A stretch of 64,000 nucleotides of DNA from a virus (lineage: Duplodnaviria; Caudoviricetes). The stretch lies in IMG/VR virus record IMGVR_UViG_3300013315_000010, positions 1,407 to 65,406 of that record; one strand, 5' to 3'. Both the position numbers and the translations under genes were made by a program. Shown one piece after another: positions 2-64,000 of this stretch. The notes below the pieces were generated by a model. That model ran no database searches. It was not told the DNA's origin and worked only from the letters and a program-made list of their open reading frames with translations. Within the stretch, counting starts at the first letter, position 1. Each line of letters starts with the position of its first letter.

Positions 2-1117
2 GGCAAGCCTATCCCCAACTCCCTTAAGAAGGGGCTCGGGATGGCTTTTGCAAAATTTGACCAGTACCAGCTGGCCAAGTACCGGGGTGAGGGTAAGTCC
101 CTCGGCCTGGTTGACCTGGCAAACCTGGTACACCCCCGGCCAACTGGCCGGAACGCTGAAGCGTTGACCCAGCTGGTCAACGGCACACTCCGGAGCACGG
201 GGACCTGGGAGTCCAAACTCTCCGCTGCCGGTAAGTCCGAGAACAAGGCCGAAGCAAAAGTCGAAGCCTGGCAGGAGCTGCTCGTGTCCGGACGCATCGG
301 GTACTTTGCCCTGCTCCGCAACCTGTGCAACATTGCAACCGATGCTCCCCACCTGATCGATCGGGCATGTGAGCTACTCACCAACGAGGCGGCAATTCAC
401 CGCAGCCTGGTGTTGCCCTTCAGGTTCAGCACAGCTTACACCCAGGTGGAAGGGCATGATCGTCGGCTTATTGTTGCCCTGAACAAAGCCGTTGACCTTT
501 CGTGCACCAACGTGCCCGACATGCCCAACAGCTTGGTGGTTGTAGACTACAGCTCCTCCATGGGAGAAGGCTACGACAGCAACAGAGGGAAAGGCACACT
601 CCTTGGAGCAGTGTTGGCCAAGCGGTCCAATGCAGACTTTATGATCTTTGGGGATAATGCAGCATACGTCCCCTACAATCCCGTGGACTCAACCCTAACA
701 CTGTGGGAAAGGTTCATGGCCAACAACCAAGGCTGGCAAAACAACATCTATTCAACCCAAAGGAAGTTCACCAACAAGTCCGGGGTTGGTGGTATAGAGG
801 TTGGTCACGGGACAAACTTCAATGACATCTTCGACACAGCCGCCAAGCCCTACGATCGCATCTTTGTCTTTAGCGATATGCAAGGGTGGCGTGGGGGTGG
901 AGCCCCCATACATGCCGTGGAGAACTACAAAAAGCGGCACAAGTGCAACCCGTTCATCTACTCCATGGACATGACAGGCTCGGGTACCATGATGTTTCAT
1001 CCAGGCAATGTTGCCGCCATCCCGGGGTTTTCGGAAAAGATCTTTGATCTGATTCGAGTCCTGGAGCAGGACAAGAATGCCTTGATCAAAAAGATCGAGG
1101 CAATACGGTTCGTATAA
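2..1117 (+). CDS. TROVE (Ro60/Rsr-like) + vWA domain RNA-binding protein, 5'-truncated by the window edge
   Basis: Frame is open from nt 2 (GKPIPNSLKKGLGMAFAKFDQYQLAKY). TROVE motifs KFDxYQLAKY and YFALLRNL are present, followed by a vWA MIDAS motif (VVVDYSSSM ... FVFSDMQ). Confidence 0.88.
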   Translation, partial: GKPIPNSLKKGLGMAFAKFDQYQLAKYRGEGKSLGLVDLANLVHPRPTGRNAEALTQLVNGTLRSTGTWESKLSAAGKSENKAEAKVEAWQELLVSGRIGYFALLRNLCNIATDAPHLIDRACELLTNEAAIHRSLVLPFRFSTAYTQVEGHDRRLIVALNKAVDLSCTNVPDMPNSLVVVDYSSSMGEGYDSNRGKGTLLGAVLAKRSNADFMIFGDNAAYVPYNPVDSTLTLWERFMANNQGWQNNIYSTQRKFTNKSGVGGIEVGHGTNFNDIFDTAAKPYDRIFVFSDMQGWRGGGAPIHAVENYKKRHKCNPFIYSMDMTGSGTMMFHPGNVAAIPGFSEKIFDLIRVLEQDKNALIKKIEAIRFV

Positions 1118-1819: not shown

Positions 1820-1905
1820 CCCCGGGCATTGGGTATGTGGTGAACCCAAGTGGCTGTAAACCACCCGTTTCGGCTGTGCAGGTTCGACTCCTGCCCCGTG
1901 GACCA
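1820..1905 (+). tRNA. atypical tRNA-Tyr(GTA)
   Basis: Acceptor CCCCGGG/CCCGTGG, A73, encoded CCA. Anticodon loop CTGTAAA (GTA at 1856-58). Short variable arm CCG-TTT-CGG; T arm GCAGG-TTCGACT-CCTGC. Confidence 0.8.
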
Positions 1906-3159: not shown

Positions 3160-3414
3160 ATGATTCAAAAAGATCCTTTAGGCCAGGCTATCCAAGGGTT
3201 CGCTCCCAAGAAAATTGTGGCAATCACAGCGACATCGGCTTGGACACCCTCGGCATACGATATTGCCTTTCGTGTTGGGCAATCCTGTAATTATTACATG
3301 GCATCCACAGGCAGTGGAAATTCTGCCGCGTTATCAGCAGGTGCAATCACGGTGATCAACAAGCTCGCCGGTACATACACATTCGACACGACAATGAAGA
3401 TTGAGGTAATGTAA
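3160..3414 (+). CDS. hypothetical virion-module protein
   Basis: 84-aa ORF with RBS-like AAGGTGA; coupled to the next gene. Confidence 0.65.
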   Translation: MIQKDPLGQAIQGFAPKKIVAITATSAWTPSAYDIAFRVGQSCNYYMASTGSGNSAALSAGAITVINKLAGTYTFDTTMKIEVM

Positions 3415-35989: not shown

Positions 35990-36019
35990 ATAAAAGGGCA
36001 CTCAAGTGCCATTAAAACA

Positions 36020-36090
36020 AAAAAAAAGCCCCCCAGATTCAAAGGACCGTATTATCGATCCGATGAACCCGGGGGGCTTTCGTTTTTTGT
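36020..36090. terminator. bidirectional terminator at the convergent junction
   Basis: A-run-GCCCCCC ... GGGGGGCTTT-T-run between int and the minus-strand operon. Confidence 0.65.
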
Positions 36091-36290
36091 TCAAATGTGA
36101 TCCCTGTTCATAAATAATGAACACTCTTATCCGAGATCCTCACCACAACAAAGGCATCGCATATCCGGCTCACTCCCATTGGCGCTGTAATAATACACCC
36201 CGGCATTGTGACCTCTTGCCCTGCACCAAAAGTTTTCCCACCCGGTGCACCCAATGAGCAGGTACTGCCACCATTCCAGGCTAAACCACT

Positions 36291-40498: not shown

Positions 40499-41679
40499 CC
40501 TTTATACACTCCCATTGGGGTTAAAATCATGATCACCTTAAGCAAGCCAGCTTGTGCTTCGATTACTCCAGCGATCTCCTTGTACGCTTGAGGAGCTTCA
40601 TCCAATCCCGGGCTGTTGAAGGTGAAGATCCCGTGCATTGCTGCTTTCATTTGCTCAGGCGTGATCTTTTCCTTGGCTGCCGTTCTGGACATCGTTCGCC
40701 CAGCACCATGGCTACAAGATCGAAAGGACATTGCATCCGCTCGACCAAGGACAATGTAGCTGGGCGAGCCCATCGACCCGGGTATCACTCCCAGCTGGGT
40801 ATTGTTTGCACTGGTTGCCCCTTTGCGGTGCACCCAGACATTCTGGCCAAAGTGGAACTCAGATGCAGCATAGTTATGATGGATATCAATCCGGGTGAGC
40901 ACTCGAATATCGTTGCACTTTCGTAACGATAATGCCCTAAAAAAAGCCCGTTCGAACTGCTCCATGATGATACGCCGGTTTTCATGGGCATAGGCCAGGG
41001 CAAAGTTCATATCCCGGAGATATTCTTGCCCCCACAAAGAGCTGGTGGCGAGTGACTCCAACCCAGGGGGATCGTTTACCCCCTTTCCAGCCTTGGCCAA
41101 CTTTTGATAATGGGAGTGGATTGCCGCTCCCAGCCCACGTGACCCGGTATGGATCATCAGGTAGACCCTGTCATCGGTTCCCCGTTGGATTTCCATAAAG
41201 TGGTTGCCACCCCCCAGGGTCCCAAGACTTGCAACAACCCGGTCCCAATTTCTTTCGGTCAGCCATCCTGGTAGGTTTTGCTTGACCACTTCGGTGTACT
41301 CGTCCATGGTAGCCCAGTTGTAAGGGGTACTCAGATACACCCCGTTTCCGGCTGGCACCATGGCTGCAACGGTTGAGAACATAGTGTGCATGAGCTTGTT
41401 GTCCACAAGAGAGGCTGGACAGTTGGTTTGAATCACGCTCATCCCACACCCTATATCACTGCCCACCATGTTTGGACTTATGGCATCCTTGAGCGCTGCC
41501 ACTCCACCGATAGGCATCCCGTATCCAGCGTGAGCATCTGGCATCAGGGCAACGTGGTGGAAAGCTGCGGGGTGTTGTCTTAAATTTTGCACCTGCTCGA
41601 TCGTGGCTTGATCGAGTGTCTCAATTGGAATCCACGAACACAACGGAACACCAGGACCACTATCATATTTGAACATCAC
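40495..41679 (-). CDS. rtcB: RNA ligase RtcB (2',3'-cyclic phosphate / 5'-OH)
   Basis: MPDAH, VGSDIGCG, GGGNHF, HTGSRG, HHNY, HRKGA, IPGSMG, HGAGR and DEAPQAYK are all present. Confidence 0.95.
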   Translation of the reverse strand: MMFKYDSGPGVPLCSWIPIETLDQATIEQVQNLRQHPAAFHHVALMPDAHAGYGMPIGGVAALKDAISPNMVGSDIGCGMSVIQTNCPASLVDNKLMHTMFSTVAAMVPAGNGVYLSTPYNWATMDEYTEVVKQNLPGWLTERNWDRVVASLGTLGGGNHFMEIQRGTDDRVYLMIHTGSRGLGAAIHSHYQKLAKAGKGVNDPPGLESLATSSLWGQEYLRDMNFALAYAHENRRIIMEQFERAFFRALSLRKCNDIRVLTRIDIHHNYAASEFHFGQNVWVHRKGATSANNTQLGVIPGSMGSPSYIVLGRADAMSFRSCSHGAGRTMSRTAAKEKITPEQMKAAMHGIFTFNSPGLDEAPQAYKEIAGVIEAQAGLLKVIMILTPMGVYKG

Positions 41680-42212
41680 AGCTCCTTTATTTTAGGTTGA
41701 ATAATATCAATGTTGATCCTTATCAACTCCAGCTCCAGGTCATCGAGTGCCCCTTGATTCAAGATCCGGAAGTCCTCGGGCTTTCGCTCAACCCCAGCCT
41801 CACTCTTATGTGCCAGGATATCAGGTACACCATCCCGGTACACATGAAATAAGACCCCATGCTGGCGCACCCATTCAGCCTCGTTGTTGAATCGAACATC
41901 TGGAATAACTACCAGCGGGATGTCCCTTAGCTTAAGGAAAGCAACACGCAACCAGAAGTCATCTCGAACCGTCTCCCGGGCAAACTCAGTACCGAACTTT
42001 TGGTACACATACCTGGGGCTCACTCCCCAGAAAGGATCAACGACCTCTTTAAGTTCCCCGAACCCGTGACGATCATCCCACCCGAACAGTGGGTTGACCG
42101 TGCTTTTAATCGGATCGGCAAAGGCATAGCGGTGGAACCCGCGCTTCATAAAGAATGAAGCGCAGGTATCCTTTCCACTGCGAGCTTTACCGGCAAGGCC
42201 GATGATAAACAA
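41676..42212 (-). CDS. deoxynucleoside monophosphate kinase
   Basis: IIGLAGKARSGKDT, FADPIK, QKFGTE, DVRFNNE, HKSE. Confidence 0.9.
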   Translation of the reverse strand: MFIIGLAGKARSGKDTCASFFMKRGFHRYAFADPIKSTVNPLFGWDDRHGFGELKEVVDPFWGVSPRYVYQKFGTEFARETVRDDFWLRVAFLKLRDIPLVVIPDVRFNNEAEWVRQHGVLFHVYRDGVPDILAHKSEAGVERKPEDFRILNQGALDDLELELIRINIDIIQPKIKEL

Positions 42213-56262: not shown

Positions 56263-56302
56263 CAAAAAAACCCGGGGGAGAGAAACCTTCCTCTCCCCCG
56301 GT
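56263..56302 (-). terminator. intrinsic terminator
   Basis: CCGGGGGAGAG / CTCTCCCCCGG stem with a T7 tail on the minus strand. Confidence 0.7.
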
Positions 56303-60252: not shown

Positions 60253-60525
60253 CTATCGTGTGAACCGGTCCATCCGGCGAATCCGGCTCAACCCATCAGT
60301 ATGGGACTCGATCACGTCAATATGCCACCCCGCCGCTTTTGCTGCTGCCAGGTAGCGAGGGGCATCACAGTCCTCTTCCAGGTACACGCGGGACCCGCGC
60401 TGGTAGGAAAACCCGGAGATTTTATCCGTGATCCCCAGGTCCTCCAGATCGTATTGATTGATCCTGAGCCACCCATGACCCGGGTCTGAGAAAAACATAA
60501 GTTTGCGCTTGATTTTTTCTTTCAT
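60253..60525 (-). CDS. early conserved hypothetical protein
   Basis: FFSDPGHGWL...ISGFSYQRG..VYLEEDCDA. Confidence 0.7.
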   Translation of the reverse strand: MKEKIKRKLMFFSDPGHGWLRINQYDLEDLGITDKISGFSYQRGSRVYLEEDCDAPRYLAAAKAAGWHIDVIESHTDGLSRIRRMDRFTR

Positions 60526-61373: not shown

Positions 61374-61563
61374 TCCACCCCTCTCTTTCACGGCGGTCAA
61401 TTTCATTTCGCAAAATGATTTTAACTGCGGAAAGACCAAAGCCTTTGTAAGCCTTGGAGAAAAATGGCCACTGGAGCAGCGCTCCAAGATGATCGGCCAT
61501 GGTGCTAAGCTCTTGGTCAGTCATACGCTCCATTTCTCTGTCCCAGTCTGCTAATGTTGTCAT
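61360..61563 (-). CDS. early hypothetical protein
   Basis: 67-aa coupled ORF. Confidence 0.55.
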   Translation of the reverse strand: MTTLADWDREMERMTDQELSTMADHLGALLQWPFFSKAYKGFGLSAVKIILRNEIDRREREGWNDYK

Positions 61564-62190: not shown

Positions 62191-62255
62191 TGCTCCTATG
62201 TAATGGTGAGTTTAAAAAAAAGCCCCACATGAGAGTGAGGCCCTTTTAGGGTTAG

Positions 62256-62492
62256 TTAGTAATCAATTTCTTCTGGCATAATAGTAATCATCCTGCCGGT
62301 CTCAATATTAACGTAGGTGTCCGGGATGTACTCTGGCCCTGCCGGTACATAGGCCACTGCCCATCGGTCCCCACCTGAGCGCTCACGCACCAAACGCCGA
62401 TTGATCGCGGCCAAAGTGGGCTTGCCCGTGTGCCGCTCATATATGCCATAGTACCCCTCACCACTGTAGATGATCGCTCCCCTGTAGTCCAT
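62256..62492 (-). CDS. first early gene, hypothetical
   Basis: Strong RBS AGGAGG; followed by a terminator at ~62215-62248. Confidence 0.7.
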   Translation of the reverse strand: MDYRGAIIYSGEGYYGIYERHTGKPTLAAINRRLVRERSGGDRWAVAYVPAGPEYIPDTYVNIETGRMITIMPEEIDY

Positions 62493-62520
62493 GTTTCAAT
62501 CCTCCTATGTTGTTGTTGTG

Positions 62521-62980
62521 GGTTCGTTAAGGCTCTCCGTGGTTTCGGAGAGCTTTAACCAGCCCACAACGTGGGCTTGGTCGCGGATTTCGCCGTTGTG
62601 CCTCACCGTAGTCTCACCATTAGGTGCACGGGATCGCAGGGGACTGACCCCCACGGGCAAGTTTACTCGCTGGCAGGGCATCGTATATGATGGGGTGACC
62701 GCTTCACGCGGCATTCGCCCGGCGAGGTGCCGGGTTACTCTCTCCCATTTGCAAATGATGCCCACCTGCACAACAACCGCAGCACTACCCACCCCATGAT
62801 GATGGCTCTCGGGGCTCTCGTGCCGGATTATCCGCTCGTATTCACGCCCAGCGTGAGAGTCACTCCAGCTGGGTTATCTCGCCGCCACACCGTGTTGGTG
62901 CGGGACTTGGTCACGTGCCTGGGACCTGTATTTTGGGTTTTTCGTCTGCGGCTCTCGCCACCACCGGGTTGGCCGGTGGA
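62521..62980 (-). ncRNA. candidate large structured leader RNA/ncRNA upstream of the early operon
   Basis: At least 10 hairpins and a multi-branch domain closed by GGGCATC/GATGCCC (62676-82/62757-63); four GAGAGCC copies. Confidence 0.55.
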
Positions 62981-63576
62981 TTTATTTTTTGCTCCTTTCG
63001 TTTTTTGATGGGTGTGTTCGCATGCCATATCCCATATCACATACCGTGCCAGTATTACAATGACACAATGCAAAACAGGGCCAAACTCCCGGAAAAACAC
63101 TAAATAAAAATGTTTCTATGTGGTAATTGTGCCAAGGTGCAATGAAGGGAAACAAGAAGTGGTAATTCCGATAATGGTGGGTTGTTATGGGCAAAGACGG
63201 ATGAAACCCAGCAAACATCGTTTTGGACTTAAAATCGGAACATCCAGTTCCGATATGAACAAAAGGTTCCGGATTGCCCTGATCCTTTAAATGGGCGTGA
63301 TTGACGATTTATGCGCCAAAGCTCGTTGGATCATGGTTTGGTGCCCTGGGAGTGTTGCCCGTCAAGTAGGACAATATGGCAATTGTCCTACCAATGATCC
63401 TGGCTGGTTGCTGGGAGTGTGTATTTTTTACCCATATGAGGGTAAACTATTAAATCTTTTAATACCTGTGTCACCATTTGTGCACACCTCTCCCCTTCGC
63501 TGCCAGGTGCAGCTCGGATGATCAGGCTCCAGGATCGGATGATCATCGGATGATTCGGTCAGCATCCTGGTGCCGG

Positions 63577-63597
63577 GACTATCAATGGACTAACAAT
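63577..63597 (+). repeat. third pair of attP arm-like repeats
   Basis: GACTATCAAT-G-GACTAACAAT, with the same 11-bp period as the pairs at 34491 and 34736. Confidence 0.55.
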
Positions 63598-64000
63598 GCC
63601 GCAGTTCAATGCTGCATTATCCAATGATCATGCGCCTTTGTCTGTGCCTGATGCTGCATCCCATGATCACGAGTGATGCCCCACTGCCGGGCCGAAGGCC
63701 GGGTTAAGATGATCGCGTTCCGTCTTACGCGCCACCCAACACGCACCCATGGGGGGGCACCCCACCACCCCCCACCGTGGACCCGACACTCCACCCAGGT
63801 ACCCATATATTCAAGTGCACACACAAATTTTGATATAAAATTGTGTCAGGATGTCACCTGTTCTTGAGAAGTGGCAGCATCTCGTCTGATCACACCCGGA
63901 CCTCCGGCTTGGGTGCCGGGGCCGGGTAAGATCTTATTGGCCCGGGCCACACTCGCTCCCGGAATACCGGGATCATCGTGTGTGCCAAGATCTTTAATAT

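Follow-up and report, generated by a model that had tools for sequence, protein, structure and literature searches.

The stretch of DNA analyzed here, referred to below as the window, is 64,000 nucleotides (nt) long and corresponds to positions 1407-65406 of a linear IMG/VR virus record that measures 65,406 bp and has an estimated completeness of 98%. Gene calls were those of JGI for contig Ga0170573_10198453, which is the same phage as the IMG/VR record, and positions are those of the window unless the record is named. Large open reading frames run rightward from 1 to ~36000 and leftward from ~36500 to 62492, where the first leftward gene, P0001, begins. From P0001 (62492-62256, minus strand) to ~63890 JGI calls no gene, and the right end of the record, where the element described here lies, is therefore gene-free over ~1.5 kb. 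A circular record was not supported: the JGI contig is 37 nt longer, yet there is no overlap between the ends. The family A DNA polymerase of the phage shares at most 32% identity with that of any cultured phage, and protein-anchored scans of IMG/VR with P0001, a DUF932 protein and the DNA polymerase found no close relatives. Elsewhere in the gene-free end, a cluster of GATC-containing repeats at 63513-63720 holds three copies of TCGGATGATCA together with CCAATGATCA, CCCATGATCA and AAGATGATCG, with inverted copies present; this cluster is possibly an origin or an array of regulatory sites.

The original prediction, made from the letters of the sequence, was that of a densely structured, untranslated RNA of ~460 nt that leads into the first early gene. 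Four open reading frames of 90-102 codons cross 62493-63000 on both strands; none has a PHROG match, their translations resemble noise, and their codon-usage scores are negative, as compared to +0.08 for P0001. Since JGI calls no gene in 62493-63000, PHROG gives no match and the codon scores are negative, we read the region as non-coding, in agreement with the prediction of an untranslated stretch. The element also extends to the P0001 ribosome-binding site, and so does lead into the first leftward gene. Its parts and its neighbors are collected in Table 1.

Table 1. Features of the region upstream of P0001 and of its surroundings (window coordinates)
Feature	Position	Strand	Remarks
Candidate structured untranslated leader, whole element as folded	62505-62990	-	z -6.70 vs 100 shuffles; no gene; no Rfam family
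5′ array of short hairpins	62837-62979	-	62978-62, 62961-48 (GAGA loop), 62903-885, 62873-47, 62846-37
Stem	62961-67/62973-79		7 bp
Stem	62885-91/62897-903		7 bp; complete only on minus strand, one pair there G-U
Stem	62847-52/62868-73		6 bp
Stem	62824-34		4 bp
Central multibranch domain	62583-62835	-	predicted helix probabilities 0.85-1.00 (partition function)
Multibranch closure	62676-82/62757-63		7 bp; p=0.99
Inner hairpin, within closure	62718-23/62729-34		6 bp; p=1.00
Three neighboring hairpins (62670-57, 62655-35, 62631-06)	62606-62670	-	p 0.95-1.00; within 196-nt domain
Stem	62561-67/62571-77		7 bp
Stem	62526-39/62546-59		found as originally predicted
Imperfect hairpin	62515-62570	open to both	21 pairs in three helices (minus), 24 pairs (plus)
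CA-rich linker, AGGAGG ribosome-binding site (62504-62499), spacer before ATG (62492)	62493-62514	-	
GAGAGCC copy 1	62950-62956	-	GAGA tetraloop and 3′ arm of small hairpin
GAGAGCC copies 2 and 3, tandem	62804-62819	-	CGAGAGCC CC GAGAGCC
GAGAGCC copy 4	62531-62537	-	3′ arm of long-hairpin apex
Opposite-strand intrinsic terminator at 5′ edge of element	62961-62990	+	7-bp G+C-rich stem, then ATTTATTTTTT
P0001, first leftward gene	62256-62492	-	78 aa; unnamed family of small phage proteins
Intrinsic terminator directly after P0001 stop codon	62215-62247	-	13-bp stem, 8 U, -17.2 kcal/mol, z -4.0
Type II hammerhead	61866-61796	-	56.3 bits; between small genes of leftward early operon
Type II hammerhead 2	60254-60179	-	37.1 bits; between small genes of leftward early operon

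Predicted Fold of the Element

All of the stems of the original prediction, together with the multibranch closure and the hairpin inside it, were present at the plus-strand coordinates given for them. Modeled on the minus strand, the RNA would fold into a loose 5′ array of hairpins followed by a compact central and 3′ domain with long-range helices. In the central domain three such helices are nested (62835-30/62588-83, 62777-68/62601-592 and 62763-57/62682-76), and they enclose the hairpins 62734-18 and 62712-698. The fold is predicted to end in the 21-pair imperfect hairpin at 62515-62570, which stops 10 nt upstream of the ribosome-binding site and corresponds to inverted repeat I1, with 25-nt arms that are 88% complementary. 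The model leaves the CA-rich linker open and the ribosome-binding site about half open, with predicted unpaired fractions of 0.89 and 0.53, respectively. Of the suggested GNRA-like loops, only one canonical GNRA tetraloop (GAGA, 62956-62953, with a helix probability of 0.42) and one GUGAA pentaloop are present; with a single loop of each kind, this part of the description is thin.

Stability Relative to Chance

Greater stability than dinucleotide-shuffled controls had been set as the criterion in advance, and we used 100 shuffles for the whole element and 200 for its sub-blocks. For 62505-63000 on the minus strand the folding energy is -213.4 kcal/mol (z -6.70), and 0/100 shuffles were as good. 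The signal is strongest in the 3′ 196 nt (62700-62505), where z is -5.91, 0/200 shuffles were as good and the best structure makes up 0.26 of the ensemble; the 5′ ~290 nt (62990-62698) reach z -2.58, a value matched by 1/200 shuffles. The region is indeed more stable than its shuffles, strongly so for the 3′ 200 nt.

As a genomic yardstick we scored 319 non-overlapping 200-nt segments on both strands, which yielded 638 z-scores with a mean of -0.8 and a standard deviation of 1.3. By this measure 62401-62600 (minus) ranks 4th of 638. Ranks 1 and 2 are a bidirectional terminator at 36001-36200, counted once per strand, and rank 3 is 42001-42200 (minus, z -5.5), which overlaps a listed open reading frame at 41676-42212. 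Set against the genome, the 3′ domain is exceptional and the 5′ half no more than mildly unusual. Dense structure over ~460 nt was therefore an overstatement, because the exceptional signal is confined to the 3′ ~200 nt and the 5′ ~290 nt are modest in this respect. What stands directly upstream of the first leftward gene is a real, non-coding and thermodynamically unusual element.

Repeated Motifs and Palindromes

The four GAGAGCC copies that had been reported at 62531, 62804, 62813 and 62950 were confirmed. The window holds eight copies of this 7-mer, and the four within 62531-62956 all lie on the minus strand; any 7-mer reached four copies in 22/2000 dinucleotide shuffles of the region (p ~0.011). 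Modular internal repeats were considered as well and rejected, each being individually at chance level (E 0.4-17).

One reading of these motifs is that the signal acts as DNA, namely as an array of protein sites or palindromes (a GGCTCTC operator or partition-like array, or a replication or packaging element) in a terminal or divergent control region. Both strands fold well, which is expected of palindromic DNA; the locus offers a 25-bp inverted repeat and a 7-mer present four times in one orientation; and it occupies a gene-free record end of ~1.5 kb that adjoins the GATC-rich repeats at 63513-63720. However, one strand clearly surpasses the other in z-score and in how well its ensemble is defined, several helices rely on G-U pairs, the G+C content of 57-61% is unlike that of typical origins, and the motif and palindromes were counted as non-recurring elsewhere in the genome (GAGAGCC has 8 copies per 64 kb). 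We regard a DNA-level signal as rather improbable.

Strand, Promoters and Terminators

The minus strand is the probable RNA-bearing strand. It has the better z-score and a much better-defined ensemble: on the plus strand, 62505-63000 folds at -213.3 kcal/mol with z -4.32, and the 3′ 196 nt give z -3.65 with a best-structure frequency of 0.008. Some helices depend on G-U pairs that form on the minus strand, for example 62903-885, 62670-57, 62655-35 and 62631-06; in the hairpin trio of 62606-62670, four minus-strand G-U pairs become A-C mismatches on the plus strand. The A/T and G/C skews of the plus strand fit leftward genes up to ~63000 and reverse beyond that point, and the shared orientation of the four GAGAGCC copies also favors the minus strand. 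On the other side, the long hairpin at 62515-62570 gains 8 kcal/mol in stability on the plus strand (-43.9 kcal/mol, z -8.2) over the minus strand (-35.7 kcal/mol, z -9.5), and the plus strand bears a clean intrinsic terminator at 62961-62990. We leave the strand unsettled because the plus strand also folds well and because the long hairpin is stabler there.

Intrinsic terminators mark out a short leftward unit. P0001 is followed at once by a terminator, after which P0002 is the next gene, and more leftward terminators lie at 61464 and 56269. Upstream of the element, no minus-strand promoter scored above the genomic background. Promoter scores of 10 are reached by ~20 sites per strand in the genome and by as many in shuffles. 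Only three near-consensus sigma-70 promoters are present in the record (plus 34652, minus 53335 and plus record 148-176; PWM 15.8-16.1), none of them upstream of the leftward early genes at 62492-56300.

The plus strand carries an intrinsic terminator at the 5′ edge of the element, and the 51-nt stretch that holds this terminator and a 3-bp hairpin folds at -18.4 kcal/mol. It is one of a pair of terminator-like elements, GGTTGGCCGGTGGATTTATTTTTT at 62961-62990 and GGTTGCTGGGAGTGTGTATTTTTT at 63398-63429, which are 71% alike and 439 nt apart, in a region where no plus-strand gene is called. A candidate plus-strand promoter facing the terminator (TTTACT-18-TATGAT, 62662-62691) was rejected, its score of 10.1 being at background.

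These features bear on a second alternative, in which the locus would produce one or more free-standing non-coding RNAs: either a plus-strand RNA antisense to the leader and ending at 62961-62990, or a stable RNA processed from the leader as in P4/P1 immunity. In its favor are a strong intrinsic terminator on the plus strand that has no gene there to serve, the promoter-like site aimed at that terminator, the greater stability of the 62515-62570 hairpin on the plus strand, and a single GCUCUC stretch (62553-62548) that is complementary to the four GAGAGC copies. Against it, the promoter-like site is no better than background, the predicted plus-strand RNA of 62698-62990 folds at chance level (z -0.78, with 44/200 shuffles as good), and no Rfam family beyond generic hairpins is matched at E<=10. 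We consider a free-standing RNA unlikely.

Known RNA Families

The original prediction recognized no hammerhead, RNase P, tmRNA or intron core in the element, and here we agree, since 0/4227 Rfam 15 covariance models match it. A search of 62450-63050 returned only generic hairpins and nothing else at E<=10; these were microRNA precursors at 15-21 bits (thresholds 67-102) and a CRISPR repeat at 15 bits. Judged by these models, the element is outside every described RNA family.

Hammerheads have a CUGANGA and GAAA core with three stems, and the phage encodes two of type II within the leftward early operon (Table 1). A hidden hammerhead or other ribozyme in 62493-63000 was rejected on the negative Rfam result. 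Kinship of the element to the second hammerhead was likewise dismissed, as their 12-nt identity, CCGAAACCACGG, is at chance level (E 1.6). The only RAGATH match lies outside the element at 60406-60445 and is at chance level (19.9 bits).

Conservation of P0001 and of the Element

P0001 belongs to a family with 348 representative clusters at E<=1e-3 and the consensus SGEG..G...TGK.T.RAI..RLTRER.GGDRWA; its relatives are 40-65% identical. Neither Pfam nor PHROG gave a match, and no solved structure was matched by sequence. The protein is modeled with a pLDDT of 96.1 as a compact beta-beta-alpha-beta-beta-beta domain whose structural neighbors are weak (Z 4.9 to T4 Dmd and 4.4 to AcrIF9); Foldseek returned nothing at E<=0.001, and the Atlas held no usable match. 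P0002 has no relatives.

Where the flanking DNA of P0001 relatives was seen, the gene comes early in a series of small genes that follows a strand switch. The sequence upstream of these relatives does not resemble the element. Two IMG/VR loci found through the P0001 alignment (40% identity) have unrelated DNA upstream; at locus L002 a homing-endonuclease gene lies upstream, and at L004 and L039 other small genes do. Three loci have unrelated upstream spacers of 120-150 nt, of which two fold at z 0.0 (L035) and z -0.3 (L037), and the third reaches z -2.5 and ends in a terminator (L038). The sole upstream stretch that recurs among the relatives is CAACAACAAC, before the ribosome-binding site. 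A group I intron linking an upstream open reading frame to P0001 was rejected: Rfam gave no intron match, the N-terminus of P0001 is conserved, and the gene is preceded by a ribosome-binding site of its own.

Direct searches gave a similar picture. No match was obtained by blastn of 62200-63200 against 50,697 phage records (INPHARED). A motif-chain pattern had 0 matches in IMG/VR and 25 in JGI metagenomes, of which 0 were similar by blastn or nhmmer. A paired GACCAAG motif had 3 IMG/VR matches, none similar to the region and two in seemingly coding sequence. GTDB genome contigs yielded nothing with either the P0001 alignment or the 22-nt hairpin apex, and a loop-only descriptor of the 3′ domain had 0 matches. 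On these sequence comparisons, the leader seems to be confined to this lineage of phages.

Such an orphan might also be spacer DNA or the product of sequence decay, without a dedicated function, its folding arising from composition and chance palindromes. No homologue was found in the collections searched, and relatives of P0001 manage without the element; the 5′ 290 nt differ little from the genomic background, the z-score of 42001-42200 shows that similar values occur elsewhere in the genome, and the short internal repeats are at chance. This reading has a small but appreciable chance of being correct. However, it would have to accommodate an overall z of -6.7 and a z of -5.9 for the 3′ domain, which none of the 100 and 200 shuffles, respectively, attained, a best-structure frequency of 0.26 for a 196-nt RNA, and the enrichment of the 7-mer. 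Moreover, an idle spacer of 490 nt directly before a gene would be unusual because phage genomes are compact.

A Candidate 5′ Leader of an Early Unit

We tentatively favor a different reading, to which we give somewhat less than an even chance: that the element serves in cis as the 5′ leader, specific to this lineage, of a short leftward unit of early transcription made up of leader, P0001 and terminator. In favor of this reading are the lack of a gene in the region, the position just before the P0001 ribosome-binding site, the minus-strand folding and its genomic rank, the G-U pairs, the composition skews, the four GAGAGCC copies and the precedent of the lambda N leader. Transcription would probably start in the A+T-rich 63000-63300, where we place the promoter by inference, and the resulting RNA may have a cis effect on the P0001 mRNA, namely on how stable it is or on how it is processed or translated. 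A factor would putatively bind at the four GAGAGCC copies. Several observations sit poorly with such a leader. No minus-strand promoter upstream rises above background, and the plus strand, too, far exceeds chance in its folding and has the more stable long hairpin; the element includes a strong plus-strand terminator within its 5′ edge, and its 5′ 290 nt are only modestly structured; finally, the collections searched hold no homologue, and the DNA upstream of the P0001 relatives is unrelated, short or not unusually structured.

Among known systems a close parallel is lambda, in which nutL and N are ~200 nt apart, N being downstream and preceded by a highly structured leader modulated by RNase III (PMC5725501). 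The lambda pL-nutL-N-tL1 unit and the present one are alike in having a structured leader (a candidate one in the present unit), a hairpin near the ribosome-binding site, a small first gene, a terminator and then the rest of the operon. They are unlike in length, with ~200-220 nt for the N leader as compared to at least 490 nt here, and they share no sequence similarity. In the lambda leader the large hairpin near the ribosome-binding site is an RNase III site, and a terminator follows N. By analogy with it, the long hairpin at 62515-62570 may be an RNase III-type processing or stabilizing element. N itself is a disordered, arginine-rich peptide, whereas P0001 is a compact, confidently modeled alpha/beta protein.

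This difference also weighs on antitermination, which the original prediction had raised in a put-like form. A nut site consists of a boxA upstream of a boxB hairpin on the transcribed strand. No boxA (CGCUCUUA or UGCUCUUUAACA) was found on the minus strand of 62493-63000 at up to 1-2 mismatches, total matches being at chance expectation. A lambdoid nut site was accordingly rejected, for want of a minus-strand boxA and because P0001 is not an arginine-rich, disordered antiterminator of the N type; P0001 was likewise discarded as an N-like antiterminator, being a compact folded protein with no Pfam or PHROG match. The put element of HK022 has two stems, measures ~65-75 nt and lies shortly after its promoter. 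The present locus is like it in placing a candidate cis RNA ahead of terminators (after P0001, at 61464 and at 56269) and unlike it in that the element is six times larger and that nothing put-like was identified when the two were compared by description. The put-like antitermination RNA lacks its expected parts, including a boxA-like element on the minus strand, and was not upheld.

A riboswitch or attenuator has an expression platform in which a terminator or a helix sequestering the ribosome-binding site alternates with an aptamer helix. On the minus strand of 62990-62493 there is no hairpin with a U-tract that could serve as an intrinsic terminator or attenuator inside the leader. The best structure does pair 62631-62661 with the ribosome-binding site and codons 3-12, but we rejected this helix as a switch component since its strength is at chance level; pairing between leader and coding region was equalled by 87/1000 shuffles and 96/1008 genomic 32-mers. 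Having neither a terminator or attenuator nor a clear sequestering helix, and with the ribosome-binding site 0.53 unpaired, the suggested riboswitch-like leader was not supported. Nothing speaks specifically for a put-like, nut-like or riboswitch reading.

Two further groups of RNAs invite comparison. The P4 CI RNA and the P1/P7 c4 antisense RNA resemble the element in having a long leader with a short repeated sequence and one complementary copy. Unlike in those systems, there is here no Rfam match beyond generic hairpins and no premature terminator in the leader, and the complementarity covers only 6-7 nt. Similarly, GOLLD, ROOL, HEARO and RAGATH share the setting of a large structured RNA candidate in a phage with tRNAs and type II hammerheads, but the element matches none of their Rfam models. 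There is a slight chance that the locus represents a new class of large phage RNA, a stable processed regulator or polymerase modifier controlling read-through at 62215-62247, 61464 and 56269; this would amount to an RNA-based early switch or immunity in a temperate phage without a recognizable CI/Cro pair. If the cis-acting leader is real, an uncultured temperate phage would have an unusually long and well-folded leader controlling its first early gene, and this could, as a single-sequence prediction, point to new control of early phage transcripts. The element is of value as a lead for those who hold the phage, its host or RNA data.

Other RNA Parts of the Phage

The phage is unusually rich in RNA parts, with a Ro60 protein, a YrlA-like RNA, tRNAs and two hammerheads. 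A gene for the TROVE/Ro60 protein is located at record 1009-2523 (window 2-1117; PF05731, 7.9e-22). The idea that the element is the Y RNA of this protein was rejected, as the YrlA-like match lies elsewhere and none falls in 62450-63050. That candidate, at record 797-903 (plus strand) and outside the window, matches RF02553 over the full model length with 30.8 bits (E 7.6e-4), below the gathering score of 69, and is positioned 106 nt upstream of the TROVE gene. At window 1824-1898 (plus strand; record 3230-3304) ARAGORN identifies a tRNA-Tyr, which at 25 bits on the Rfam tRNA model falls short of the gathering score, 29 bits; the next three tRNAs reach 52-61 bits on the same model.
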